Positions 2,457 through 52,583 of a DNA stretch of 64,000 nucleotides are shown piece after piece. Made by a program: the position numbers and the translations under genes. Within the stretch, counting starts at the first letter, position 1. Every line of letters begins with the position of its first letter. The notes under the pieces were generated by a model, which was not told where the DNA came from, did not search any database, and was given only the letters and a program-made list of their open reading frames with translations. This DNA is from an uncultured Fibrobacterota bacterium (GTDB lineage Bacteria > Fibrobacterota > Chitinivibrionia > Chitinivibrionales > FEN-1185), in the NCBI GenBank assembly GCA_963753345.1, contig CAVWBU010000019.1, positions 86,645 through 150,644 of the forward strand, in the 5' to 3' direction.

Positions 2457-2521
2457 AAGTTGACGGTTGTCAGTTGACAGTTGACGGAGAATGCAAGAAA
2501 AGAAGTTAAGAGTTAAGAGTG
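2457..2521. repeat. GTTGA-rich short tandem repeat (gttgacggttgtcagttgacagttgacgg ... agaagttaagagttaagag) directly after the cyclase stop
   Basis: Read directly. Related tracts at 7807-7842, 11335-11358, 50525-50578 and 52214-52253. Confidence 0.7.
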
Positions 2522-2859: not shown

Positions 2860-3035
2860 GGGGAAGGATCTCCCTCGCTGCGAACCGGCGTGCTGCTCTT
2901 ATTCATTGCTCATTTTAATCGCGCGCCGGTCCTCCGCTACCCCCTCCTGGGTAGCCCCCAAGTTGGGCCTGCTGCATGAAACAAACACCTGTGCGGGGGC
3001 ACCCACGAGCAGTAGTTGCACTGAAGAATTAATCT
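2860..3035 (+). repeat. diverged copy of intergenic repeat family 2 (GGGGAAGGATCTCCCTCGCTG ... CCGCTACCCCCTCCTGGGTAGCC ... GGCACCCACGAGCAGTAGTTG)
   Basis: Shares its start, the central CCGCTACCCCCTCC(T/A)GGGT(A/G)GCC block and the GGCACCCA(C/A)GAG..AGCAGTTG end with 50395-50580 and 52076-52256. Confidence 0.6.
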
Positions 3036-3276
3036 CTTAATTCATTCACTGGCGTTTTTTAGTAATGCGCCGGAGTGAAGCGACAAAGCAATCTACTCTC
3101 GATGCTATTCATTTTTATTGTTCTCGCCAATTACCGCAAGTTCATTGCAAATGCTACCGCTTTTTCGTGGTGCCCCTGCAGCTGAAGTTACTTTCCTGCA
3201 AATCAACTCTCTAGGGGGCTACCCACGAGGGGGCCAGGGGGGACACTAATATATATATTTTTATAAATAATAATAT

Positions 3277-5674: not shown

Positions 5675-5865
5675 CTGTTGCCGAGCGTTAGGCCGGACTG
5701 GAGGCCGCGCCAGAGCGCGGTGCCGCCCGGACCCGGCCGCGTACTCGCGGCATAGGGACGAGGCGGCCCGAGGGCGAGCCCGAGACCGGAAGGAGGGCCG
5801 ACCCGAGCCTGAGCAACACCATGAGCGAAGTTGAAGGGCGAAGGCGAGGGGAACGCCCATATTCT
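5675..5865 (+). repeat. intergenic repeat family 1, copy A
   Basis: ctgttgccgaGCGTTAGGccGGACTGGAGG ... GGCGGCCCGAGGgCGAgCCCGAGACCGGAAGGAgGGCCGACCC ... GGGGAACGCCCAtATTCT. Aligns by eye to the six other copies. Confidence 0.85.
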
Positions 5866-5968
5866 TTGTTTGGATTACTATTGCAAGGAGGCCGAGGCCG
5901 GGGGAGACGACCCTTGGAAGTACCCGACGGGGTAAACTTCTCCCCCGCCTCTTTTTTCTTATGGATTA

Positions 5969-7399
<1,431 letters not shown>

Positions 7400-7585
7400 G
7401 ATATGTGATCTCCTTGTTGATGGAAGTAAAATGCGAGGGGGAAAAATAGTTCATGCAGAGGGAAATTCAATACAATCAAGATGGGAAGAATATCTGGTGG
7501 GGACACCACTTCGTGGTTTCCCCTGGGGTGCAGCTTCCTTCCGCTGAAGATCAGCGGGAGGCGATCTGCACCCACACCCTTTCCA

Positions 7586-7639
7586 GCGGAAACGTGCGCG
7601 AGGCGCAACGCTTGCGCGTTGCGGGCGTCACGTTTCCGC
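7586..7639. other. nested perfect hairpin between the pfk stop and the ahcY start
   Basis: Outer arms gcggaaacgtg (7586-7596) and cacgtttccgc (7629-7639) are perfectly complementary over 11 bp. The inner cgcaacgc-ttgc-gcgttgcg forms a perfect 8-bp stem. Confidence 0.6.
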
Positions 7640-7806
7640 AACGCCTTCCTGTAGGAATGCCGCTACGCGGCATGGAAAACTAAAAAAGGTTCATCGCAGT
7701 ATCCGGTTGTCTACAACGCGCGGCAGAGGAAATCTCTTCAGTCAAGGCATGTTGTTGCGCTATCCGGTGAGCGGGGGTGGGTTGCCCGGTCTGATGGATT
7801 TCTGCT

Positions 7807-7842
7807 GTCAACTTTCAACTCTCAACTCTCAACTTTTAACTC
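7807..7842. repeat. TCAACT/GTTGA short tandem repeat abutting the pfk stop codon
   Basis: gtcaactttcaactctcaactctcaacttttaactc read directly. It is the reverse complement of the motif at 2457-2521. Confidence 0.7.
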
Positions 7843-9155
7843 TTTAATAGCAGCGGCTGGCCGGTCCTGTCAATCACATCCCTCCATAGAGGGCTTTCCG
7901 GATCGACCCTGTTCCGCTTTGAGACCGCGAGCCGTATGGGCAGGTGGACGAAGTTGTTATTGACAAGAGAGATGAGCACCTCGGTCTTGCCGGCCATTGC
8001 CGCGTGCACGGCGTTGGACCCCAGCCGCGCGCAGTAGATGGAATCGGTGGTGATGGCGGGCGCGCTGCGGATCATGTAGCTCGGGTCGATGTACTTGACG
8101 CTCACCTCCACGCTCTTCTCGTCGAAGAACGCCTCCACGCGTTGCTTGAGAAACCCGCCGATGTCACCGAGCTTCTTGTTGCCCGACGCGTCGTGGCCGC
8201 CGGTCTCGCCCACAAGGTTCTGGCCCGCTCCCTCGGCAACGAGGATCACGGCGTGATGCCGCGACTCGAGGCGTCTCGTGAGGGATGCAAGCAGGCCTTT
8301 TTCGCCGTCGAGTTCGAACGGGACCTCGGGAATGAGCACAAAATTGACATCGCCGGAAGCGAGCGCGGTGTGCGCGGCAATGAACCCGGAGTCGCGGCCC
8401 ATCACTTTCACGATGCCGATGCCGTTCATCACGTCGTGCGCCTCAACGTGCGCGCTCTCCACCGCCTCCACCGCGAGCGACACTGCGGTCTCGAACCCGA
8501 AGCTCCGCTGGCAGAACGCGAGGTCGTTGTCGATGGTCTTGGGTACGCCGATCACGCCGAGCCTGGTGCCGCGCTTTTTTGCTTCCTCCGAAATGGCAAG
8601 CGCGCCTTTCATCGTGCCGTCGCCGCCGATGGCAAAGAGCATGTTGATGTTCATCTGTTCAACGGCGTCGACCATGAGCGGGATCTTTTCGCCGCCGCCG
8701 CGCGAAGAGCCGAGCAGGGTGCCGCCCATGGCGTGAAATCCGACAATGATGTCGGGCGAGAGGTCGATGGCGGGCACGCCGAATTCGGGCAGCAGGCCGC
8801 GGTAGCCGTAGCGGATGCCGGTTATCCTGCGCACGCCGTAGCGGTGCCACAGGCTCATCACAATGGAATAGATTACGTCGTTGAGGCCGGGACACAGCCC
8901 GCCGCAGGTCACGATTGCCGCATTGACTTTTGCGGGATCGAAGAAGATCTTCTCGCGGGGCCCGGCCATTTCGAGCAGATTCTGCTTTGCAAACATGCCG
9001 GACGAAGATTGCGCAGTTGCGTTGATGTCGTATAATATGAACTGGTCGTCGGTGGCGAAATTCGCTATGAGGTCGTCCGGTTTCTTCGACAGCCTGATGG
9101 GCGACGGTATGTGCGGGGTGCCGAGCATGGGAATGGAAAAGTCGTATTGTTCCAT
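7836..9155 (-). CDS. 6-phosphofructokinase (ATP/PPi donor specificity unresolved)
   Basis: 439 aa. CGGLCPGLNDVI, AIGGDGTMKGA, VPKTIDNDL, MGRDSGFIA. Confidence 0.9.
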   Translation of the reverse strand: MEQYDFSIPMLGTPHIPSPIRLSKKPDDLIANFATDDQFILYDINATAQSSSGMFAKQNLLEMAGPREKIFFDPAKVNAAIVTCGGLCPGLNDVIYSIVMSLWHRYGVRRITGIRYGYRGLLPEFGVPAIDLSPDIIVGFHAMGGTLLGSSRGGGEKIPLMVDAVEQMNINMLFAIGGDGTMKGALAISEEAKKRGTRLGVIGVPKTIDNDLAFCQRSFGFETAVSLAVEAVESAHVEAHDVMNGIGIVKVMGRDSGFIAAHTALASGDVNFVLIPEVPFELDGEKGLLASLTRRLESRHHAVILVAEGAGQNLVGETGGHDASGNKKLGDIGGFLKQRVEAFFDEKSVEVSVKYIDPSYMIRSAPAITTDSIYCARLGSNAVHAAMAGKTEVLISLVNNNFVHLPIRLAVSKRNRVDPESPLWRDVIDRTGQPLLLKS

Positions 9156-10916: not shown

Positions 10917-11334
10917 TGTCCGGGCCCCCGACCCTTCGAAAGGCTCAGGGTGACAGGCAATCGTTTTTACTCCGGCAACTAAATATGATTAAACAAAACT
11001 TGTTTCCCAGAGCGAAAAGGATATGATGTTTATCTGTATTCTAATGCCGGAGTAATAATATCAGGGGAATTTACAAAGAGGGCTTCTACCCTTCTGCCCC
11101 GCGCCAGGCAGCATCCCGCCTAACGAGCGCAAACAGTTATTATCATCAGTCAACTACGTTCTCGCGCCAATGGGCATCCGCTGCAAATCAGACAAGATTC
11201 TATTGGGCAAAAATTATAGGGATTCGCAGACGCGGCTGCTCCTGTAGGGTTGTATGCCTTAGTAGTCGTGGTGCTTCGCGAAGTTTATCCCGAGCTCTGA
11301 CGAGGGGCTCGCAATGACACTTTGTTTTATCTTG

Positions 11335-11358
11335 CTGTCAACCGTCAACTTTCAACTC
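11335..11358. repeat. TCAAC short tandem repeat (ctgtcaaccgtcaactttcaactc)
   Basis: Read directly. Same motif family as 7807-7842. Confidence 0.55.
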
Positions 11359-11525
11359 TTCTTCTCGGTGCCTCCGCAGCCGAGGCGTCTTGCTTGCAGA
11401 TGAACTGCCTGGGGGGCCACCCACGAGGGGGACACTTCCCCCGCCTGAGTATTTGCGCCTTGAAGTAAGCAGCTAGAAATCCGCCACCGGCCTCATAGTT
11501 TTTGGGTTATATTTGTGGTTATCCC

Positions 11526-13141: not shown

Positions 13142-13420
13142 GGGACCTCCTTTTGGTTGCAGGTAAAATACATCAATAGGCATGCCAGGTTTGCGGCGGG
13201 CGAAGCGTTGATGCTCATGACAGCGGCATCGGACAAAAGGATGTCTGCTTTGTCTTGCCCAATTCCCTCATTCTCACAAATATTCTCAAAACCGAAAATG
13301 TTCAACGGCAATTCCACGATATTCCATTATGTTGCCCCTTGCCGGGGTTTGGTATCGCTTTGGAATGACACTTGCTATCTATCCTGAGTTAGCATGACCA
13401 AACACACAAAGGAGGATCGC

Positions 13421-14029
13421 ATGTGGAAACGCGGCATAGCGGGTAGTATCGGCGTCGCGGCAATGGTGGGAGTGTTGTCCGTATTCGCGAGTGTCAATGC
13501 CCAGAACAATTACCTGGGCGAAATAAAAATGTTTGCAGGCACCTTTGCTCCCGTTGGCTGGGCTTTGTGCAACGGCCAGCTCCTGCCGATAAGCCAGAAT
13601 ACGGCGTTGTTTAACCTGCTCGGCACTACCTATGGCGGCAACGGCACGACCACCTTCGCGCTGCCGGACCTTCGCGGGAGGTTCCCTATGCATTTTGGAA
13701 CCGGAACCAATCTCACTCAAAGAAATCTTGGTGACGTGGGTGGCGCGGAAACGGTAACGCTTACGGAGGCGCAGATGCCCGCTCATACCCACACCGCTGC
13801 CGTCGGTGTCGATTCCACGGTGGCCTCCACGGACAGCCCGCAAAGGGCGCTGCCGGCGCGCAATGCCTCCGCGACTCCGGCCTACGGAAAGTCAAGCAAC
13901 GCGACCATGGCATCCACGGCCGTCGTGGTGGGCACTGCGGGCGGCGGTCAGCCGCACCCGAACATGCCGCCGTTTGAATGCGTCAACTTCATCATCGCGC
14001 TCACGGGTATTTATCCGTCCCAGAACTAG
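13421..14029 (+). CDS. secreted phage-tail-collar domain protein (MdpB-like)
   Basis: AGGAGG precedes the ATG at 13421. Signal peptide, then YLGEIKMFAGTFAPVGWALCNGQLLPISQNTALFNLLGTTYGGNGTTTFALPDLRGRFPMH and C-terminal GGGQPHPNMPPFECVNFIIALTGIYPS. Confidence 0.8.
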   Translation: MWKRGIAGSIGVAAMVGVLSVFASVNAQNNYLGEIKMFAGTFAPVGWALCNGQLLPISQNTALFNLLGTTYGGNGTTTFALPDLRGRFPMHFGTGTNLTQRNLGDVGGAETVTLTEAQMPAHTHTAAVGVDSTVASTDSPQRALPARNASATPAYGKSSNATMASTAVVVGTAGGGQPHPNMPPFECVNFIIALTGIYPSQN

Positions 14030-17527: not shown

Positions 17528-17579
17528 TAAAGTGTTTTGGTGGGGGAAGTACAGTCTGTCTTAAAAGTCAAGGCAAGAC

Positions 17580-17762
17580 TTGGGCGCCCCGCCGCTTTGC
17601 GGCGGCGGCCGTCCTTCCGGTCCACCGCTTCGGGTGCTTCCAAGGGTCGTCGGCCTTGGGCCTCGGGCTGCCTGCCACGAGGGCCCTGCGGGCCGTGGTC
17701 AGGGCGCATCCCGCTGTCGCGGGACCATCTTTCCAGTCCTGCCTGGCGCTTGGCAGCGGGAA
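17580..17762 (-). repeat. intergenic repeat family 1, reverse-orientation copy
   Basis: The reverse complement reads ...CCAGGCAGGACTGGAAAGATGGTCCCGCGACAGCGGGATGC...GACCACGGCCCGCAGGGCCCTCGTGGCAGGC...GACCGGAAGGACGGCC...GCAAAGCGGCGGGGCGCCCAAG. Closest to the copy at 50635-50833. Confidence 0.8.
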
Positions 17763-17861
17763 TACTGCACAATCCACACGCTTGACAAATTGGCAACTTC
17801 TTGTTCTGTTTTTTAAGAATTCAACATGGCGCAAGTATTTCTGCTTGACAGAACATATTTC

Positions 17862-18022
17862 TGTTGCCGCGCGTTAGGTGGACCGCAGGGCGCGCTAGAG
17901 CGCGTTGCCGGCCGACCCGGCCGCTAGGCATAGGGCGGACCGGCAACGAGGCGAACAGCCGAGCCCGGAGGGAGACCGACCCGACCCCGAGCGAAGTGAG
18001 GGGGAGGGGAACGCCAAAATCT
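17862..18022 (+). repeat. intergenic repeat family 1, forward copy (inverted pair with 17580-17762)
   Basis: ctgttgccGCGCGTTAGGtGGACcGcAGG ... GAGCCCGGAGGGAGACCGACCC ... GGGGAACGCCAAAATC. Confidence 0.8.
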
Positions 18023-18350: not shown

Positions 18351-19337
18351 ACAATCCTCCAGACGTGAATGATTACCATGATGAGCAATAGTGCGGAAAT
18401 TCCTGCACTCGCGAGGTAGAGCGGCCAGGCGATTTTCAACTCCACTTTAACGCCCGAAGGTGACGTATAGGTGCTGCTGCCAGTGAACAAAAACGCCAGG
18501 TACGAGCTGAACGCGGGCACAGAAACCAGGTTGAATGCTGTCAAGAATGGCGTGCTTCGACAAATTGGCGACAGAAAAATGATTGCAATTGCACCAGTCA
18601 GGCCGGTAACGAATCCCTTGAGCGAAAATGACCGGCCCGGAATGAAAGGCAGCAGCAGCGGCGAAAGGATCGTGCCGGTGAAAAGAGCGGTCAGTCCCGC
18701 TATGACGAGAGGCACAACACCCGATAGCGCTTGACGGTAAATAATACCGGTGCGTGTCATGCCAAATAGAACAGCGGCAAAGAGTAAAAAGAGCCCTACT
18801 TTTTCGAATGCGGGGAATCGTCTCCATGGGAACAAGTTTTGCACGATCAACGATTGAAAACCGCACCCGCCGCATCGCAGGACTCACGGTGCAGTTATTG
18901 TCAAGAAATGCCGGTATATCCGATGCGCGCACCGGGCCGAATTTTACCGAAAAGCCGCCGCAGGCCTTTTGCAGCTTTGATGCGGAAACACCGGATGCGC
19001 TCAGTTGCGGCAGAATGAGAGTTCGGTGTGAAATTATTGATGTAAGATTGCATGCCGAAAGCTGTTTGACTATTTCATTGGTGCAAAATGTGCCTTTTCC
19101 TGCGGCGCACCACACGTTGATGCCCTTTGTGTCAAGCACAAGGATCCAGGCGTTCCTTCCTGTCAATGAACTGCGCAATATGTTGAAGCTGAGACGGTAG
19201 TTGGCAGAAACGAACACCGGATCCGATTCCTTCGGGTCTCCGAGCGCGTAGAGGCCGGGATCAACGCGGTACCGCATGCGGAAGCGGTTGCTGAGGCGGC
19301 ACATGATCGCGCCGAATTTGTCGGCAAACGAAAGCAT
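18347..19337 (-). pseudogene. hgcA: mercury-methylation corrinoid protein HgcA, interrupted by an apparent +1 frame break between the corrinoid and transmembrane domains
   Basis: Frame A (19337 downward): ...[11 protein letters not shown]...PVFVSANYRLSFNILR...LVLDTKGINVWCAAGKGTF...RRVRFSIVDRAKLVPMETI, then non-protein-like sequence. Frame B (A+1, open from 18883) carries the multi-helix membrane domain ...PAFEKVGLFLLFAAVLFG...LLPFIPGRSFSLKGF...FTGSSTYTSPSGV...IIHVWRIV. Removing one base from the G4 run (18812-18815, C4 on the coding strand) or the adjacent T5 run (18800-18804) restores LVPMETIPAFEKVGLFLLF. Confidence 0.85.
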
Positions 19338-43565: not shown

Positions 43566-43730
43566 CTGGGCGTTACCTTCGCCTTCGTCAAGACTCAGGC
43601 TCAGGTCGGTCTCCCTCCGGGCTCGGCCGTTCGGCCTCGTTGCCGCCTGCCACAAGGGCCCTTCGGGCCGTGGTCAGGCGACAATGCGCTCTGGCGCACC
43701 CTCCGGTCCACCTAACGCAAAAGTCAAGGG
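43566..43730 (-). repeat. intergenic repeat family 1, reverse-orientation copy
   Basis: The reverse complement reads TTGACttttGCGTTAGGtGGACcGGAGGgtgcgccagagcgca...GACCACGGCCCGAAGGGCCCTTGTGGCAGGCGGC...GAGCCCGGAGGGAGACCGACC...GGTAACGCCCAG. Confidence 0.8.
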
Positions 43731-46019: not shown

Positions 46020-46235
46020 TTTGGTGGGGGCACCGCTTCGCGTTTCCCCCTGGCCCCGAGCCTCCTCGCCCTCCGGGCTGCGGGGTCTCGGGGCACACCC
46101 CCTCCTGCGAAGGTGCGCGCCAATGTCACTCGCTTGACGCTCGCGAGTCGTCGCACCTTCGCAACGCATCCTCTGCGGAATACCCCCTCCGCCTTCGGCA
46201 CCTCCCCCTTGTTAAGGGGGAGATAAGAGAACTGT
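46020..46235 (+). repeat. family-2-like GC-rich repeat (diverged)
   Basis: ...CCCCGAGCCTCCTCGCCCTCCGGGCTGCGGGGTCTCGGGGCACACCCCCTCCTGCGAAGG... parallels CTCCGGCCTCCTCGGCCTTCGGCCTGCGGTGTCCTGCGCTACCCCCTCCAGGG at 50410-50470. Confidence 0.55.
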
Positions 46236-46280
46236 ATTTCCCACATTCGAGAAGGTTCTTTTCAAGTGCGGCAATCGATC

Positions 46281-46460
46281 CTCTGCCCGCGCGTTAGGCA
46301 GGACTGGAGGTCCCGCCATAGCGGGATGCCGCCCGGACGCGGCCCTGTGGGCCATAGCGCCGTGGCGGCCCGAGGCCGAAGGCCGAGACCGGAAGGACGG
46401 CCGACCCTTTGTAGAGACGCACGGCCGTGCGTCTCTACAAAGGGGAACGCCCAGATTCTC
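46281..46460 (+). repeat. intergenic repeat family 1 copy with a 38-nt perfect palindrome cassette
   Basis: ctctgcccGCGCGTTAGGCAGGACTGGAGG ... GGCGGCCCGAGGCCGAAGGCCGAGACCGGAAGGACGGCCGACC-[cctttgtagagacgcacgg/ccgtgcgtctctacaaagg, 46406-46443]-GGAACGCCCAGATTCT. Confidence 0.85.
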
Positions 46461-46469
46461 TATTTATAT

Positions 46470-47291
46470 TTACAAATTATTTACTATGTACTCGCGGGCA
46501 TTGCGAAACAGCTGCGGGCCCATGCCCTCTTCAGGCAACTGCTCGCGGGTCCAGCGCGGGTGATTGGTGCGGTGGGTGTAGGCTTCGGGGTGGGGCATGA
46601 GGCCGAACAGCCGGCCCGAGGAATCACAGATGCCGGCAATTGACAGCTGCGAACCATTGGGATTGTCCGGGTATTTCATGGTGGGCTTCTGCGTGTCCGG
46701 GTCCATGTAGGAGAGAACAATCTGGTTGTGCTTTCTGAGTGCGTCGAGGACCTCGCTGTCGCGCGCCACGAATTTCCCCTCGCCGTGGCGCACCGGCAGG
46801 TAGATGACGTCTATCCCTTTTGTGAAGACGCATGGCGACGCCGGATTTGCCTTGAGCCATACCCAGCGGTCCTCGAACCTGCCTGAGTCGTTGTTGGTGA
46901 GCGTCACCTGCTGGCTCACGACGCCGGAAAGCGACGGCAGGAGCCCGAGCTTCACCATGAGCTGGAAGCCGTTGCAGATGCCGAGCATGAGCCTGCCGTT
47001 CTTGATGAACGACGTGAACTGCGAGAACAGCGGCACGCCGGTCTTCTTCACCACCGTGTGAAGCAGCCGGTTGGCCTGCGCCTTTGCCGACCCAAGGTCG
47101 TCGCCGTCGAGAAAACCGCCCGGCAGGCACAGAATGTCGTACGGGTCAAGCGACGCGTCGCCGTTCACAAGCTCCCACACCGTGACGATGTCCACGGTGT
47201 CGAACCCGCCCAGCCGGCAGGCGTGCGCGGTTTCCATTTCGCAGTTCGTGCCGTTCCCGGACAGAACAACTGCCGAGGTCTTTCTGCTCAC
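46470..47291 (-). CDS. purQ: phosphoribosylformylglycinamidine synthase, glutamine amidotransferase subunit
   Basis: 273 aa. LMLGICNGFQLMVKLGLLP (nucleophile Cys), GLMPHPE. Confidence 0.9.
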   Translation of the reverse strand: MSRKTSAVVLSGNGTNCEMETAHACRLGGFDTVDIVTVWELVNGDASLDPYDILCLPGGFLDGDDLGSAKAQANRLLHTVVKKTGVPLFSQFTSFIKNGRLMLGICNGFQLMVKLGLLPSLSGVVSQQVTLTNNDSGRFEDRWVWLKANPASPCVFTKGIDVIYLPVRHGEGKFVARDSEVLDALRKHNQIVLSYMDPDTQKPTMKYPDNPNGSQLSIAGICDSSGRLFGLMPHPEAYTHRTNHPRWTREQLPEEGMGPQLFRNAREYIVNNL

Positions 47292-47307
47292 GCCGAAATT
47301 CTCCTTA

Positions 47308-50295
47308 TCAAAATTGCAGCGTGCTCTTCCACGCCGCCTTTGCGTCGATCCTCGACAGCATCACCACCGGCGCCTGCCTGAGCCCCTTAAGCTGGATTGC
47401 GTCGCCTTTGACAACTGTCCCGATGCGCCGCAGCGGAAGCCGGGAGAACAGCGTTTCCATCCGGCCCGCCTTGGCCGGTTCCACTTCGACAAGCAGCCGC
47501 CCCGGCGACTCGGAGAACAGCAGTTCGGCGTCCGACGAGCAACCGGACTGTTCTACGGCCTGGCAGTCGATCTGCGCGCCCACGTCGCCCGAAAAGCACA
47601 TTTCCGCGAGCGCCACTGCCAGGCCGCCGTCGGAGCAGTCGTGGCATGAGCGCACGAGCCCTTCGGAAACAGCGGAGAACAGCGTCGTGTAGCATTCGAT
47701 GTTCCGGGCCGGGTCGCGCACAGTGGGGACGGTTCCGCCGGCCATGCCCTTCATGAGCGCGTATTCGGAAGCCCCGAGTTCCGGCAGGGTTATTCCTATC
47801 ATGTAAATAAGGTTGCCGCTTTCCTTGAAATCCATGGTGACCGCCCTGCGCACGTCGGGCACCTTGGCGACAAGGCTGAACAGCAGGGTGGGCGGTATGG
47901 CAATGGTCACGTCGCCGATGCGGTAGTCGTTCTTCATCGAATCCTTGCCCGAGATCAGCGGGATGCCGTAGGCTACGCAGATGTCAAGGAGCGCCTTGTT
48001 CGCGCGCACAAGCTGGGCAAGCTTGTACTCGCCGTCCGGGTTGCCGCCGCTTTTTACCGGGTCGCACCAGCAGAAATTGTCGAGGCCCGCCATGAACGAG
48101 GGGTCGGCGCCCACGCAGCAGGCGTTGCGCACGGCCTCGTCGATTGCACAGGCGGTCATGGCATACGTGTCGATGTCGCTGTAGCGCGGGACAATGCCGT
48201 TGGAAACCGCGATGCCTTCGAAGGAATCGAGCACAGGACGCAGTACGGCCGCGTCGGACGGGCCGTCGTTCTTGGCGCCGCACAGCGGCTTCACCACGCT
48301 GCCGCCCTGCACCTCGTGGTCGTACTGCCGCACCACATATTCCTTGCTGCATATATTGAGCCGCCTCAGGAGCGAAAGCGTGTCGGCCCGTATATCCGAT
48401 GGCGCGAATGCCGCTTGTGCCCCTGCGCCGCGGTCTTCCCATTTTGCAACAAGGTTCATGCGGGGGAGGCCGTTGTGCATAAACTCCATGTTGAGCCGCG
48501 CCACGGGCGTTTCGCCGTACTGTATGTCAAGGAAGCCGCTCGCCGTGAATTCGCCGAGATCGGTCGCCTCCACGTTCCACTCCTGCGCGAGCGCAAGAAA
48601 GCCGGACACCTTGTCCGGCGGCACGGCAGCGTTCATGCGTTCCTGCGCCTCGGACACGAAGATTTCCCACGGCTCGAGCCCGTGGTACTTGAGCGGCGCC
48701 CGTTCCAGGTGCACCACGGCGCCGCCGGTGTCCTCGGCCATTTCGCCGACGGACGACGAAAGCCCGCCCGCGCCGTTGTCGGTGATCGAGTTGTACAGCC
48801 CGCGGTCGCGCGCGACAAGAAGGAAATCGGTCATGCGTTTCTGCGTGATCGGGTCGCCGATCTGCACCGCGGTCGCGGGCGAGCCTTCGTGCAGCGGCTC
48901 GGACGAGAACGTGGCCCCGTGAATGCCGTCCTTGCCTATTCTGCCGCCCACCATGATGATGTGGTCGCCCGGCATCGCCTTTTTCTCCCAGCCTTTGCGC
49001 CCGCCCACGTCAAGCGGCATGAGCCCGAGGGTGCCGCAGTAGACCAGCGGCTTGCCCAGGAACCTTTCGTCGAACACGATGGTGCCGTTGACCGTGGGGA
49101 TTCCGCTCTTGTTGCCGCCGTGCTCCACGCCCTCGCGCACGCCTTCGAGCACGCGCTTGGGATGAAGGACGCGCGGCGGCACCGTGCCGGAGAAGAACGG
49201 CGAGGCAAAGCAGAACACGTCGGTGTTGGCGATGAGGCGGCAGCCCAGGCCCGTGCCGAACGGATCGCGGTTGACGCCCACGATGCCGGTGAGCGCGCCG
49301 CCGTAGGGGTCGAGCGCCGACGGGCTGTTGTGCGTTTCCACCTTAAACACGATGGCGTTCGTGTCGTCGAATTTCACCACGCCCGCGTTGTCCTTGAACA
49401 CCGAGAGGCAAATGTCGGCGGCGCCTTTCTTCTGCCGCACCAGCGACGTTGTCTTCTGGACAAAGCTCTTGAACAGGCTCGTGATGCGCTCGGGCTCCCT
49501 GCCGGGTTCGATGTAGGTGATGTCGGCGTTGAAGATCTTGTGCTTGCAGTGCTCCGACCACGTCTGCGCGAGCACTTCGAGCTCCACGTTGGTGATGCCG
49601 GCAGGCATGCCGTGGGCGATGCGGTCGTCCGCGGTCTTCTTATCCGTAAAGTACGCCTTGATGCATTTCATTTCCTCGAGCGACAGCGCGAGCATGCCGT
49701 TCTTGCTAATTGCGGCAAGCGCCTTGTCGTCGACGTTGAGGTCAACTTCGCGGAACAGCGGCGCCGTATGCGTGTCCACGACCACCGGCGCGGGGAAGTC
49801 CTTGGTGTGCACCTTGAGCCATTCGTCCTTCGAGTAGATCTTGATGGTCTGGATGAGCGTGTTGGCGAGGATTTCCTCGGCAATGCGCTCGATGCTCTTC
49901 TTGGAGACGTTTCCGAAAAAGAAATACTGCGTGCCGGTGTGCACCGAAAAGCTCTCGGGAAAGGTCCTTCCCAGGGCGATGACGGCCGCCTCCTTCGCGG
50001 TTCGGCCGGCATTGTCGGTGACGCCGGGCAGGAACCCGACCTCAACCATCCAGTCGAATGATTCGCAGAAGGTCCTGTTGATGGTGTAGTCCTGGACAAT
50101 GGGGTCGGACAGCGGGCCTTCGGCAAGAGCAACAAGGTCTGCGGGGAAGAGCGGCCCGTTGAAGACGTACACGGCGGACGAGCGCACCGAATTGATGGTG
50201 CCGATATCGAGGTCGGAGATTATTTTCGCGCGGATTTTTTCGCCCAGAGCGTCGCGCACCGCGGCCTTGGGTCCTACGTAGATTCTTTCCGGCAT
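47308..50295 (-). CDS. purL: phosphoribosylformylglycinamidine synthase, synthetase subunit PurL with an N-terminal extension
   Basis: 995 aa, uninterrupted. KVETHNSPSALDPYGGALTGIVGVNRDPFG, and duplicated AIR-synthase-like halves. Confidence 0.95.
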   Translation of the reverse strand: MPERIYVGPKAAVRDALGEKIRAKIISDLDIGTINSVRSSAVYVFNGPLFPADLVALAEGPLSDPIVQDYTINRTFCESFDWMVEVGFLPGVTDNAGRTAKEAAVIALGRTFPESFSVHTGTQYFFFGNVSKKSIERIAEEILANTLIQTIKIYSKDEWLKVHTKDFPAPVVVDTHTAPLFREVDLNVDDKALAAISKNGMLALSLEEMKCIKAYFTDKKTADDRIAHGMPAGITNVELEVLAQTWSEHCKHKIFNADITYIEPGREPERITSLFKSFVQKTTSLVRQKKGAADICLSVFKDNAGVVKFDDTNAIVFKVETHNSPSALDPYGGALTGIVGVNRDPFGTGLGCRLIANTDVFCFASPFFSGTVPPRVLHPKRVLEGVREGVEHGGNKSGIPTVNGTIVFDERFLGKPLVYCGTLGLMPLDVGGRKGWEKKAMPGDHIIMVGGRIGKDGIHGATFSSEPLHEGSPATAVQIGDPITQKRMTDFLLVARDRGLYNSITDNGAGGLSSSVGEMAEDTGGAVVHLERAPLKYHGLEPWEIFVSEAQERMNAAVPPDKVSGFLALAQEWNVEATDLGEFTASGFLDIQYGETPVARLNMEFMHNGLPRMNLVAKWEDRGAGAQAAFAPSDIRADTLSLLRRLNICSKEYVVRQYDHEVQGGSVVKPLCGAKNDGPSDAAVLRPVLDSFEGIAVSNGIVPRYSDIDTYAMTACAIDEAVRNACCVGADPSFMAGLDNFCWCDPVKSGGNPDGEYKLAQLVRANKALLDICVAYGIPLISGKDSMKNDYRIGDVTIAIPPTLLFSLVAKVPDVRRAVTMDFKESGNLIYMIGITLPELGASEYALMKGMAGGTVPTVRDPARNIECYTTLFSAVSEGLVRSCHDCSDGGLAVALAEMCFSGDVGAQIDCQAVEQSGCSSDAELLFSESPGRLLVEVEPAKAGRMETLFSRLPLRRIGTVVKGDAIQLKGLRQAPVVMLSRIDAKAAWKSTLQF

Positions 50296-50394
50296 ACCTG
50301 ATCCTGATGAGCAAATCGGAGTTTGATATAACCTTTCAAATATACTTTCCAGAATCTATGATTTCCTGTTAAAAAAGTATCAAAGAAATTTCAT

Positions 50395-50580
50395 GGGGGG
50401 AGGTATCCCCCTCGCTCCGGCCTCCTCGGCCTTCGGCCTGCGGTGTCCTGCGCTACCCCCTCCAGGGTAGCCGCCATGACAAAGCAGATGCGAGACCACG
50501 CATTGTTGTGGCGGCACCCAAGGAGAGCAGTTGTAAAAGTAGAATAGGTGAAGACGTTGAAAAGTAGAAAATGCAGAGAA
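50395..50580 (+). repeat. intergenic repeat family 2 copy plus GTTGA-like tail
   Basis: GGGGGGAGGTATCCCCCTCGCTCCGGCCTCCTCGGCCTTCGGCCTGCGGTGTCCTGCGCTACCCCCTCCAGGGTAGCCGCCATGACAAAGCAG...GCATTGTTGTGGCGGCACCCAAGGAGAGCAGTTG... Nearly collinear with 52076-52256. Confidence 0.85.
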
Positions 50581-50634
50581 CAAGTCCTGGCCGATTTATT
50601 GCAGAATTCCGGATTGGTGCGAAAGACAAGCGTG

Positions 50635-50833
50635 TTGACTGAAAAAATTCCGTTGCCGCGCGTTAGGCAGGACTGGAAAAATGGTCCCGCTTGAGGCGGG
50701 ATGCCGGCCTGACCACGCCCGAAGGGCCCTCGTGGCAGGCGGCCCGAGGCCGGAGGCCGAGACCGAAAGGACGGCCGACCCCCAGGTAGCATTGCACAGC
50801 CGTGCGATGCTACCTGGGGGAACGCCCAATTCT
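50635..50833 (+). repeat. intergenic repeat family 1 copy
   Basis: TTGACTgaaaaaattccgttgccGCGCGTTAGGCAGGACTGGAAAAATGGTCCCGCttgaGGCGGGATGCC...GGCGGCCCGAGGCCGGAGGCCGAGACCGAAAGGACGGCCGACC-[hairpin cccccaggtagcat...atgctacctggggg, 50779-50820]-AACGCCCAATTCT. Confidence 0.85.
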
Positions 50834-50911
50834 AATTATGGTACTTGATAAAATAATAAGGAGCAGAAACCCATGCCTCTGCTCCTCATCAAATTCTCAA
50901 AAAGGCAATCT

Positions 50912-51937
50912 TTAGAAGAACAACTTTTCCGTGTAATGCTCCCCGCTCTGATACACGACCTTCTTGAGCGCTGCCTTGGGCTTGGGGAACACCAGCTTGA
51001 GGTTCTTTGTCTCGTGCTGGGTGTCGAGTATCTCCGGGTCGATTTTCGAAGACGGCAGCGCCTTGTATTTCTCGCCGTTCACGTCCACGAGGCAGAAATC
51101 TTCCGCCTTGAGCCGCAGCGGATTGTACGAATAGTTGAACATTGACAAGGTCATGTTGGTGGTCCCGCTCACCACCGCAAGGTAAATGTCGAACTTGTTG
51201 ACGCGCGGATCGGGCTTTCCCTCGATCACCTGGGCGTAGCCGGAATAGGTGTTCACATTGACCTTGCGGAGGTTACTCAGGAGGTCGGCGGCGCCCGGAT
51301 ACGCGGGATCGTAGACGAGCACGAGTTGCACGTAGTATTCCGCCTTGAGAAGGGCGTTCACGTCCTTGCTGTCTTTGCCCTCGGTATACGCCTGCGAGGC
51401 CATCTCGTAGAACTGCTTGGTGAAGTCGGCAATGATCTGCTTCTTCCTTGCTTCGATGGACTCCGGATTGTCAACAACGCCCTGCGCCTTGGTGATCCAT
51501 CCGAGCGCGTCGTCCAGCCTGTTGCGGGCGATGCTCGAATCGGCCATGAGGAGGATGAAATTCGCGTACTGCTGCCGCAGGTCCGACGGCATGTCCTTGG
51601 AAAGAAGCGTGTCGATGTCCTTCATGAACAGCTTGATGGGGTCCATGTCGTAGGTGCCTTCCGACAGCACCATGTTGGCCCGCAGAAGCGTCATTTCAAT
51701 GAATTTCTGCTTGAACGGAGTGCTCAGCCTCGACTTGTCGGGATGCGCGTTGAACCATTTCTGGTAGAAAATGTAGGCCCGCTTCTGCAGGGTGCGCTGG
51801 CTGATGCCCTGCGAATGCCTGGCCTGGTTGTACGCCTTGTTGCCTTTGGCTTCATCCGAGGTAAGGGACGAACAGGACGCGAGAAGAAGAAAAACGTTTA
51901 AGTACACCAGTCCGACAAGAACCTTTTTCATTGCCAT
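50912..51937 (-). CDS. lipoprotein, unknown function
   Basis: 341 aa. MAMKKVLVGLVYLNVFLLLASCSS lipobox. Helical-repeat-like N-terminal half. No family recognised. Confidence 0.6.
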   Translation of the reverse strand: MAMKKVLVGLVYLNVFLLLASCSSLTSDEAKGNKAYNQARHSQGISQRTLQKRAYIFYQKWFNAHPDKSRLSTPFKQKFIEMTLLRANMVLSEGTYDMDPIKLFMKDIDTLLSKDMPSDLRQQYANFILLMADSSIARNRLDDALGWITKAQGVVDNPESIEARKKQIIADFTKQFYEMASQAYTEGKDSKDVNALLKAEYYVQLVLVYDPAYPGAADLLSNLRKVNVNTYSGYAQVIEGKPDPRVNKFDIYLAVVSGTTNMTLSMFNYSYNPLRLKAEDFCLVDVNGEKYKALPSSKIDPEILDTQHETKNLKLVFPKPKAALKKVVYQSGEHYTEKLFF

Positions 51938-52075
51938 CCTCCTCAGAATCGATGAGTGTCACGACACCACGGGTTGGACGTAAGTATTAAGTATATAGAA
52001 GATGGTTTTTTCTCAGGAGGTTTGTCAATACAAATTACAATTACAATAGATAAATGTAAATAATAATCCATAGAT

Positions 52076-52256
52076 GGGCGGGGGAGGTATCCCCCTCGCT
52101 CCGGCCTCCTCGGCCTGTGGCCTGCGGCGTCCTCCGCTACCCCCTCCTGGGTGGCCGCCTTGACAAAGCAGCTACGAGACCGTGCATTGTTGTGGCGGCA
52201 CCCACGAGGAGCAGTTGAAAGGTTGAAACGTTGAATAGTTGAAGAGTTTGAAATCA
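52076..52256 (+). repeat. intergenic repeat family 2 copy plus GTTGAA tandem tail
   Basis: GGGCGGGGGAGGTATCCCCCTCGCTCCGGCCTCCTCGGCCTGTGGCCTGCGGCGTCCTCCGCTACCCCCTCCTGGGTGGCCGCCTTGACAAAGCAG...GGCACCCACGAGGAGCAGTTGAAAGGTTGAAACGTTGAATAGTTGAAGAGTTTGAAA. Confidence 0.85.
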
Positions 52257-52308
52257 GGACATGCGGATATTGATCTTATTGCGGATGCCAATTGGCGCGA
52301 GAACGTAG

Positions 52309-52510
52309 TTGACTGATGATTATAACTGTTTGCGCGCGTTAGGGGCGACCGGAGGCCGCGCCAGAGCGTGGTGCCGCCCGGACCCGCCTTTTGTAGAGAC
52401 GCAGCGGCGCTGCGTCTCGCCGAAGGGAATAGGGCCGTGGCGGCCGGAGGCCGAAGGCCGAGACCGCAGGGAGGGCCGACCCCGCAAAGCGGCGGGAGCG
52501 CCCAGTCTTT
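52309..52510 (+). repeat. intergenic repeat family 1 copy
   Basis: TTGACTgatgattataactgtttGCGCGCGTTAGGggcGACcGGAGGCCGCGCCAGAGCGTGGTGCCGCCCGGACCC-[ttttgtagagacgcagcggcgctgcgtctc]-...GGCGGCCGGAGGCCGAAGGCCGAGACCGCAGGGAGGGCCGACCCCGCAAAGCGGCGGGAGCGCCCAGTC. Confidence 0.85.
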
Positions 52511-52583
52511 TTATAATTACGCGGAGCGGTGCCCCCACCAACAGTCTTAATCAATCTGAGCGAAGTATATTTTGATTTCTTCA

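Follow-up and report, generated by a model that had tools for sequence, protein, structure and literature searches.

Composite repeat units around purQ-purL and a lipoprotein gene

The stretch of DNA analysed here, designated the window, comprises 64,000 nucleotides (nt; 57% G+C) of contig CAVWBU010000019.1 from an uncultured Fibrobacterota bacterium assigned to the Chitinivibrionales. Pfam searches identified genes for an SLT/LysM transglycosylase, purQ, a fused purS-purL, a 341-amino-acid (aa) protein and priA along the locus of interest; the product of the 341-aa lipoprotein gene itself had no Pfam match. Three consecutive non-trivial intergenic regions among these genes are occupied by repeat units, designated E, F and G, of about 440-470 bp and without coding capacity, which bracket purQ-purL and then the lipoprotein gene, as an earlier reading of this DNA (the original prediction) had stated. 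In each region a block of repeat family 2 (F2) is followed by an element of repeat family 1 (F1) on the plus strand, with gaps of 61, 90 and 81 nt. The features of the units are listed below. P6 and P8 are helices of the F1 fold, bit scores and E-values refer to R1, a covariance model built from ten F1 copies, and tandem arrays were detected with Tandem Repeats Finder (TRF) and a heptad regular expression.

46020-46230, plus strand: left module of unit E, a divergent F2 variant (F2b), with the head TTGGTGGGGGCACCGC at 46021-46036, a G5/C5 hairpin, a long GCGAAGGTGCGCG...CGCACCTTCGC hairpin and a CCCCCTTGTTAAGGGGG hairpin
46291-46451, plus strand: F1 copy E (R1 82.2 bits, E 5e-17; fold z-score -6.55), with P8 in the long form (GTAG...CTAC palindrome, 46411-46438) and a U-rich tail to about 46470, adjoining the purQ stop
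50394-50536, plus strand: F2 block of unit F, 89% identical to 52080-52220 (fold z-score -2.4), with hairpins GGGGGA..UCCCCC, GGCC..GGCC, CUACCC..GGGUAG or an alternative, and GCCGCC..GGCGGC
50529-50575, plus strand: degenerate GTTGA-like tract GTTGTAAAAGTAGAATAGGTGAAGACGTTGAAAAGTAG of unit F, read from the sequence and missed by TRF and the heptad regular expression
50611-50659, plus strand: upstream module of F1 copy F, with a TTGGTGC box at 50614-50620 and a TTGAC-bearing small inverted repeat at 50635-50655
50660-50826, plus strand: F1 copy F (R1 52.7 bits, E 3e-10; z-score -7.04), with a long P8, GTAG...CTAC, at 50786-50813
52078-52220, plus strand: F2 block of unit G (repeat search, self-BLAST and folding)
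52214-52253, plus strand: GTTGAAAG period-8 tandem array, about 4.9 copies (TRF), fused to the F2 3' end
52289-52335, plus strand: upstream module of F1 copy G, with TTGGCGC at 52292-52298 and TTGAC at 52309-52313; 95% identical, inverted, to 11119-11181
52336-52502, plus strand: F1 copy G (R1 45.3 bits, E 1e-8), with a short P8 and a GTAGAGACGCA palindrome inserted at the P6 tip, 52389-52418
52526-52541, minus strand: inverted copy of the unit E head TTGGTGGGGGCACCGC, exact over 16 nt, 24 nt past F1 copy G

Self-BLAST and a repeat search of the window recovered the repeat blocks far above background, as had been anticipated. The F2 blocks at 50.4 kb and 52.1 kb, judged nearly collinear by eye in the original prediction, were collinear with 86.5% identity over 170 nt by self-BLAST and 89% over 141 nt by repeat search. 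That all three regions carry an F2 block was borne out for these two and had to be qualified for the 46-kb block, of which about 64 nt (46042-46105) could be aligned with the other F2 blocks at 80% identity. Its variant, F2b, is also present in L017 and L082 according to the grouping in the F2 alignment (L001 to L100 denote fetched 8-kb stretches). The proposed module order stood in that F2 precedes F1 on the plus strand in every unit, while the GTTGA-rich tract said to lie between them is missing from unit E, degenerate in unit F and a true period-8 array only at 52214-52253 (TRF and heptad regular expression). The shared orientation of the three units is not significant (n = 3). Pairwise identity among the units was 59-70%, with longest exact matches of 22, 20 and 37 nt, which makes them poor long direct repeats, the term under which they had been described.

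The sub-modules move independently, as had been noticed before: the TTTGTAGAGACGCA...TGCGTCTC hairpin takes a terminal position at 46408-46441 and an internal one at 52389-52418. The inverted head at 52526-52541 is either an end resembling a terminal inverted repeat or a truncated inverted F2b, and the same inverted-head motif lies 3' of F1 at L093:686-844. In our best reading, the units are copies of a modular, non-coding, non-autonomous family of mosaic intergenic repeats found mainly in one Chitinivibrionales lineage.

Open reading frames (ORFs) of 81-133 aa lie wholly inside repeat units at 50391-50792 (minus), 52309-52575 (plus) and 17568-17834 (minus). Almost certainly these are artefacts of GC-rich, structured sequence, which gene callers could nevertheless annotate as hypothetical proteins. 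Small ORFs in F2 were discarded by eye, the substitutions between copies being located in hairpin loops and the reading frame not being preserved. A pairing between F2 and F1 (CCUCCAG with CUGGAGG) was likewise dismissed by eye, as it is not kept across units.

Structure and distribution of the repeat families

F1 was modelled as a multi-helix fold of 135-170 nt with 36 pairs in 10 helices. The closing helix P1 (GCGUU/AACGC) leads into a rod formed by P2 (GGY/RCC), P3 and P4, which contains two conserved purine-rich 3x3 internal loops (GGA opposite GAG, and GNA opposite GGA). The junction bears the hairpins P5 (6 bp and a tetraloop), P6 (long, with sub-helices) and P7 (GGC-loop-GCC), and the 3' part consists of a GA step, the variable hairpin P8 and a conserved CCCA-N2-3-UCUUU tail. 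Single F1 copies gave fold z-scores of -4.9 to -7.0 relative to shuffled sequences. The window holds seven full F1 copies and two truncated ones, with heads at 11119-11181 (minus) and about 7715-7746 (minus), or approximately one copy per 9 kb. R1 recovered all window copies, copy B partly, and gave 47 matches at E<1e-3 across the window and 93 fetched loci.

Covariation was assessed in a structure-fitted alignment of these 47 copies, in which 94.7% of cells form standard pairs compared with 33-49% when the partners were slid by 1-3 columns. Double-sided changes were present in 24 of the 36 pairs (150 cells), and none of 500 shuffles reached the observed values; as the copies come from only four to five related genomes, these counts are not independent events. 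When the assessment was repeated with a structure-blind MAFFT alignment, 92.5% of cells were paired versus 31-51% with slid partners. Compensation was evident in P1, where GCGUU/AACGC is replaced by GCGCC/GGCGC in copy B, in the third pair of P2 (C-G in 20 copies, U-A in 18) and in an inner pair of P6 (G-C in 25 copies, C-G in 20). RNAalifold applied to a mixed MAFFT alignment did not recover the fold, the subtypes being offset by a 1-nt indel, and the manual structure, the covariance model and the MAFFT-only control were used instead.

Cells with G·U or U·G outnumbered those with A·C or C·A by 43:14, a strand-specific bias, and 18 unpaired columns were at least 90% conserved, nearly all of them G or A. 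Because of the G·U excess and the conserved unpaired purines we infer, short of proof, that the strand beginning GCGUUAGG is the folded strand, with RNA as the favoured molecule; the F1 core is probably expressed as RNA. No family in Rfam 15 matched F1, either at gathering thresholds (window, 16 loci and L071) or at E<=10. The best sub-threshold match was RsmW (E 0.054, 23.9 bits against a gathering threshold of 52), and the remainder, to snoRNA and miRNA models, was noise. At gathering, the 16 loci contained only BjrC80 in Bradyrhizobium, which is unrelated to the repeats.

R1 matches were confined to loci from metagenome-assembled genomes (MAGs) of Fibrobacterota/Chitinivibrionales and one other MAG, with none in about 65 proteobacterial, actinobacterial and archaeal control loci. 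A scan of genome collections with the F1 core pattern matched three Fibrobacterota MAGs, namely CAVSQB01, DATFYJ01 (labelled 'Chitinivibrionales') and PLWQ01; a coding stretch of DATFYJ01 shares 91.5% identity with the window. Loci L062 and L082 carry four F1 copies per 8 kb. About 65 of 93 pattern matches, mostly in Alphaproteobacteria, were rejected as the antisense of a conserved protease-like coding sequence (...GNPFGLGGT...) that fails the covariance model; this coincidental match of the 24-nt F1 core pattern is a caution for pattern-only searches. Viral contigs and plasmid and phage collections contained no match to F1 or to the unit.

The copy in the other MAG, a 70%-GC genome labelled 'Deltaproteobacteria', is a divergent F1 at L071:7452-7581 (minus; 37.8 bits) that keeps every helix with P6 simplified and lies past an acyl-CoA ligase gene, 37 nt from its stop and convergent with it. 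Unless the L071 contig is mis-binned, this copy suggests an occurrence of F1 outside Fibrobacterota. F1 could be viewed as a new class of structured non-coding RNA that extends, as the L071 copy hints, beyond Fibrobacterota, with the rod-junction fold and purine loops as a platform for a protein (a mobilisation enzyme or an RNA-guided or RNA-scaffolded factor) and the Chitinivibrionales genomes as a burst of a more widespread RNA-based element; we regard this as rather unlikely.

F2 spans about 145 nt and can be drawn as a string of hairpins: GGGGGA..UCCCCC, a variable second hairpin with a possible AT-rich loop of about 30 nt, CUACCC..GGGUAG, and GCCSCC..GGSGGC. Its folding z-scores were modest (-0.1 to -3.3). 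The F2 3' end often runs into three to five tandem GTTGA heptads or octads. Four GTTGA arrays were found in the window, compared with 0.06 in shuffles, and two of them follow the stops of protein genes without F2. A conserved upstream module of about 50 nt that links F2 and F1 (TTGGCGC..N~12..TTGACnGAAyAGAtTTC..GCC) precedes about half of 35 inspected F1 copies in four genomes, and its small inverted repeat shows compensation (ACAGA/UCUGU versus ACUGA/UCAGU). Two promoter-like sites lie just upstream of F2, a count not above shuffled expectation, and sigma-54 and Bacteroidetes-type -33/-7 readings of the upstream module were rejected by eye for mismatched spacing. At 11 of 21 F2 sites, spread over four genomes, an F1 element follows on the same strand at a distance of 58-172 nt. 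Elsewhere F1 stands alone (copies A and D) or forms the divergent B/C pair, and F2 also occurs without F1; the composite of F2 and F1 is a recurrent arrangement and not an obligate unit.

These structural data also bear on whether F1 is a multi-copy family of host small RNAs with a function in trans, for example the sequestration of a CsrA-like protein by GGA-rich loops, with F2, the array and the upstream module as its regulatory region and turnover as the birth and death of paralogues. We consider this possible but unlikely. It is consistent with the strong conservation of the fold and loop purines across genomes, with the G·U strand bias and with the upstream module and U-rich tail that accompany many copies. 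The tandem heptads upstream may resemble operator arrays of ribbon-helix-helix regulators, which would count in the same direction. The P2-P4 rod contains four GGA motifs, but these lie opposite each other in internal loops and not in hairpin loops, and RsmW, although the best Rfam match (E 0.054), scored 23.9 bits against a threshold of 52. The promoter scan detected no promoter. The density of F1, with four copies per 8 kb in L062 and L082 and about one per 9 kb in the window, argues against a small-RNA family, and truncated remnants, nested inserts and absence from the same site in relatives are unusual for a regulated one.

Turnover among relatives and the favoured explanation

A metagenome scan with the 341-aa protein retrieved syntenic loci at 98, 89, 87, 80, 80 and 71% identity, whereas a look-up of contigs by exact match to this protein found no record. 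The gene order lipoprotein-purL-purQ was kept in all five syntenic relatives with contigs extending past the lipoprotein gene, units present or not; priA and the SLT/LysM gene were also kept in order where the alignment reaches, and L097 aligns only at the lipoprotein gene. The units are missing at these sites in syntenic relatives with 80-89% protein identity. The lipoprotein-purL region measures 616 nt in the window versus 138 nt in L095, 215 nt in L098 and 246 nt in L096, the latter three without a unit, and unit-less regions keep the purL promoter-side motif and the lipoprotein terminator. The same region of L100 contains F2 and only the last 12 nt or so of F1, and L098 retains, upstream of the lipoprotein gene, what is left of an inverted F1 end.

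The closest relative, L094 (flanks with 91-95% nucleotide identity), carries F1 at the same three regions, yet each of its copies is closest to a window copy other than its positional counterpart. The F1 of the lipoprotein-purL region is closest to copy E (90% versus 86% for the counterpart), that of the purQ-side region to copy C (91% versus 83%), and that of the lipoprotein-priA region, which is inverted, to copy A (96% versus 90%). The F2 of L094 is of another subtype. These swapped and inverted copies are evidence of exchange between copies. At the 11.5-kb site, the window and L093 differ in F2 subtype and downstream content beside a 91%-identical gene, and L093 has a full F2-F1 unit of another subtype at this orthologous site. 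Empty sites, remnants and swapped copies in relatives indicate that no given site requires an element and that replacement or conversion is rapid in evolutionary terms: closely related genomes acquire, lose, truncate, invert and swap copies.

We do not favour the suggestion that the units could mediate loss or duplication of the genes they bracket, given their identity of 59-70% and the gene order kept in five of five relatives. RecA-dependent deletion and duplication require a minimum of homology, and on this basis we judge the units, with exact matches of at most 37 nt, to be weak substrates for either event.

Neighbouring genes gave no sign of a connection with the elements. Among 50 F1 copies there was no orientation preference (downstream gene opposite in 26 and on the same strand in 21), and the F1 neighbours in the window are unrelated housekeeping genes. 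The copies sit in AT-rich intergenic DNA near gene ends. The F1 3' end is near a gene boundary, often within 10-90 nt, and the upstream modules lengthen the 5' side. GC skew was uninformative. We regard purQ, purL and the lipoprotein gene as bystanders.

A cis-regulatory RNA of the flanking genes (riboswitch, leader, terminator or mRNA stabiliser) would account for the distance of 10-90 nt between the F1 3' end and the gene boundary in most copies, for the F2 and F1 that flank a lipoprotein gene in the same orientation in L066, and for the two alternative F2 foldings, which resemble an attenuator. Such a role is highly improbable, since the elements show no orientation bias and share no common neighbour gene family, the same genes lack them in syntenic relatives, and a terminator belonging to the lipoprotein gene itself separates the stop codon of this gene from F1.

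Variable presence among relatives, together with the size (about 440-470 bp) and non-coding nature of the units, would also fit a classical MITE (miniature inverted-repeat transposable element), that is, an internally deleted insertion sequence with terminal inverted repeats (the GGYGGGGG F2 head and its inverted copy past F1), a parent transposase and an F1 fold that is incidental or binds the transposase. The exact 16-nt inverted head after unit G (52526-52541 versus 46021-46036), a motif that also follows F1 in L093 and others, points in this direction, but it is missing after units E and F. F1 without F2 and F2 without F1 both occur, no target-site duplication was found, and the 30 window ORFs scanned contained no parent element or transposase. 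Covariation in most F1 helices is unexpected for neutral MITE interiors, and we consider a MITE origin quite improbable.

The explanation we favour, to which we assign a probability of roughly 55%, is that F1 is kept by a trans-acting factor that recognises the folded single strand, most likely RNA, and that copies spread and replace one another through recombination or mobilisation in trans. Recognition of the folded strand would allow the fold and invariant loop purines to persist, and copies may be exchanged by recombination or gene conversion between them, or by mobilisation in trans. F1 is considered a non-autonomous structured interspersed repeat because of its local density, intergenic position, nesting, remnants, rapid turnover and strand-specific structural conservation.

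Several results weigh against this explanation. The main covariation count was made on an alignment fitted to the structure, and the F1 copies come from a few related genomes. The F2 structure is weakly supported, because one pair only covaries across 16 copies (C-G in 8, G-C in 6, G·U in 1) and two mutually exclusive foldings fit equally well. The promoter scan found no canonical sigma-70 promoter or -10 box at the conserved TTGAC motif, and the terminator scan found no canonical intrinsic terminator at the F1 tail. A Pfam scan of 30 window ORFs revealed no transposase, integrase, reverse transcriptase or RAYT (the transposase associated with repetitive extragenic palindromic (REP) sequences). 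Neither a target-site duplication nor a clean boundary of insertion was definable: the ends of unit G and of the L093 unit showed no duplication, the left boundaries vary, and the empty sites of L095 and L098 are too diverged for junctions.

Other copies in the window and comparison with known repeats

The remaining copies and modules in the window are as follows.

2459-2484, plus strand: AGTTGAC heptad array directly past the stop of the gene at 25-2454, without F2
2866-3012, plus strand: F2 without downstream F1 (F2 alignment and folding)
3156-3252, minus strand: short-form F2 (repeat search and F2 alignment)
5685-5857, plus strand: F1 copy A (R1 67.4 bits), without F2 upstream, followed by the GACGACCCTTGGAAG mini-module at 5906-5939 inside an inverted G5/C5 hairpin
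7808-7843 (TRF) or 7808-7833 (regular expression), minus strand: GAGTTGA heptad array directly past the PFK stop
7715-7843, minus strand: locus in which this array is followed by the upstream module and the first F1 bases CTTGACTGAAGAGATTTCCTCTGCCGCGCGTT (about 7715-7746), then by divergence into the ahcY leader
11334-11456, minus strand: short-form F2 and GTTGA heptad array (11338-11356), with a truncated F1 head about 150 nt further on
17583-17749, minus strand: F1 copy B, with P1 as GCGCC/GGCGC and the mini-module inserted between P7 and the 3' strand, because of which the R1 match is only partial
17871-18015, plus strand: F1 copy C (R1 131.9 bits), the reference copy for the structure
43569-43718, minus strand: F1 copy D (R1 128.7 bits), 61 nt upstream of a co-oriented gene

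Copies B and C form a divergent pair that recurs in L088, L083 and L062. The GACGACCCTTGGAAG module is present at 5906 (plus) and 17651 (minus), in agreement with the original prediction. Nesting of this kind extends to a GACGACCCTTGGAAGNACCCGAMGSGGT piece of about 29 nt, which occupies four distinct positions within F1 as well as the first F2 hairpin and appears in either orientation, and to a 28-nt palindrome (GTAG-NNNN-GCA..UGC-NNNN-CUAC) that forms the long P8 in eight copies and is also present at the P6 tip of copy G and in the F2 loop of L100. No stand-alone copy of the palindrome was found in the window and fetched loci.

The system had been described as a mosaic resembling bacterial interspersed mosaic elements (BIMEs). 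Its mosaic, modular, intergenic character was confirmed, and the comparison is a fair analogy of behaviour; membership of the BIMEs was not upheld, given the 135-170-nt fold and the lack of REP clusters. BIMEs and REP sequences of enterobacteria and pseudomonads are likewise abundant, GC-rich, intergenic, mosaic, near gene ends and associated with recombination, and G·T pairing suggests an RNA-level role (PMC3733652, PMC3184786). Were the units a system of this type, they would consist of REP palindromes and linkers that act as DNA, are mobilised by a RAYT and drive rearrangement. Signs of copy exchange, the location of element 3' ends near gene ends and the mosaic arrangement of intergenic modules agree with this, as do the 28-nt palindromes of the long P8, whose initial GTAG is the tag that marks the largest REP superfamily (PMC3733652). 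A REP unit, however, is a 20-40-bp palindrome that carries at one end an unpaired tag, GTAG or CGTC (PMC3733652), whereas F1 is a branched fold of 135-170 nt whose GTAG palindromes are internal parts paired end to end with CTAC; eight of eight lie in helix P8, and no other palindromes of REP size were seen. The window and loci contained no alternating REP cluster architecture and the 30 scanned window ORFs no RAYT, and we hold this origin to be as improbable as that from a MITE.

Further repeats and gene clusters were observed in the course of the analysis. A third repeat family, GTGTCATTGCGAG...GAAGCACCACGACTAC...GCATACAA...CGCGTC, lies past the heptad array at 11190-11300 (minus) of the window and at L066:1950-2025 (minus). 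L094 contains at 1600-1730 an extra nested palindrome of about 120 nt between the heptad array and the F1 upstream module, which the window lacks; it comprises GGCGTGTCGCCTCA, two hairpins of the CCCTTCTCCAC/GTGGAGAAGGG type and TGAGGCGACGG. The ahcY leader (window 7400-7700, minus) forms a long GC-rich hairpin, GCGGAAACGTG...CACGTTTCCGC, that is 86% identical to a stretch in L082 (3890-3996) and resembles in design the long hairpin of the unit E left module (46120-46160). Neither an S-adenosylhomocysteine (SAH) riboswitch nor another Rfam family was detected upstream of ahcY. An arsenic-resistance-type cluster at 19261-28033 (minus), with G+C content at third codon positions (GC3) below that of its surroundings, encodes an ACR3/SBF-family transporter, a low-molecular-weight phosphatase (ArsC-type), two ArsR regulators, an ArsP permease and an Fe-S protein. 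At 13394-14029 (plus), surrounded by cell-surface-type genes (Kelch, LDL-receptor repeat, Laminin_G_3), lies a gene for a protein with a phage tail collar domain; phage genes were otherwise not noted.

The best documented analogue of F1 is bcr1, the group A interspersed repeat of the Bacillus cereus group, by analogy and not by homology. bcr1 is about 155 bp long, is distributed differently between close strains, is transcribed, and retains its RNA fold through compensatory changes (PMC3184786). F1 resembles it in size (about 150 nt, non-coding), covariation, turnover and remnants, but has no apparent sequence or phyletic relation to it, bcr1 being considered here by description and not by sequence comparison. 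The two differ further in that bcr1 is flanked by 5-bp direct repeats, none of which were found around F1, and in that transcription is demonstrated for bcr1 and presumed for F1. The F1 fold is also more elaborate (purine-loop rod, three-hairpin junction and P8) and is embedded with F2, heptad arrays and mini-modules.

The pneumococcal BOX elements, and the Neisseria intergenic mosaic elements (NIMEs) and Correia elements, are comparable modular, interleaved families of intergenic repeats; their members are transcribed and non-autonomous, and RNA structure is predicted for them (PMC3184786, PMC3733652). Their modules are unrelated in sequence to F1 and F2. BOX is linked to an insertion sequence that is a candidate for its mobilisation, and Correia elements possess inverted ends as well as TA duplications. 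For the F1/F2 units no such insertion sequence or duplication could be identified, and of units E, F and G only G is followed by an inverted head.

HEARO or omega RNAs of IscB, and elements derived from the ends of IS200/IS605, are structured RNAs with multi-stem junctions and many genomic copies, some without an adjacent ORF. F1 is similar in these respects, but Rfam, HEARO included, gave no match to F1 even at E<=10, and no IscB, TnpB or TnpA gene lies beside any examined F1 copy. The F1 tail is conserved and therefore not guide-like. Integron attC sites are folded single strands closed by the core sites 5'-RYYYAAC ... GTTRRRY-3' and located beside gene cassettes and an integrase. F1 was rejected as an attC site because it has GTTAGGY at the 5' end and AAC at the 3' end, the reversed order of core sites, and no cassette array or integrase is nearby.

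No literature on repeats or non-coding RNAs in this lineage was found and, with no Rfam match either, the repeat appears to be an undescribed member of the structured interspersed kind. It is a real and statistically robust feature that adds a well-supported structured motif from an uncultured and poorly studied lineage; of the 36 pairs modelled, 24 show changes at both positions, and Rfam 15 contains no matching family. For annotation, the repeat units explain oversized intergenic regions and spurious ORFs such as those at 50391-50792 and 52309-52575. For genome dynamics, the units provide sites of copy-to-copy exchange, and modular structured repeats of this kind can reshape intergenic DNA even where the flanking coding DNA of two genomes differs by only about 5-9%. 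If the F1 fold does recruit a dedicated protein, it may represent a new mobilisation or RNA-protein system.

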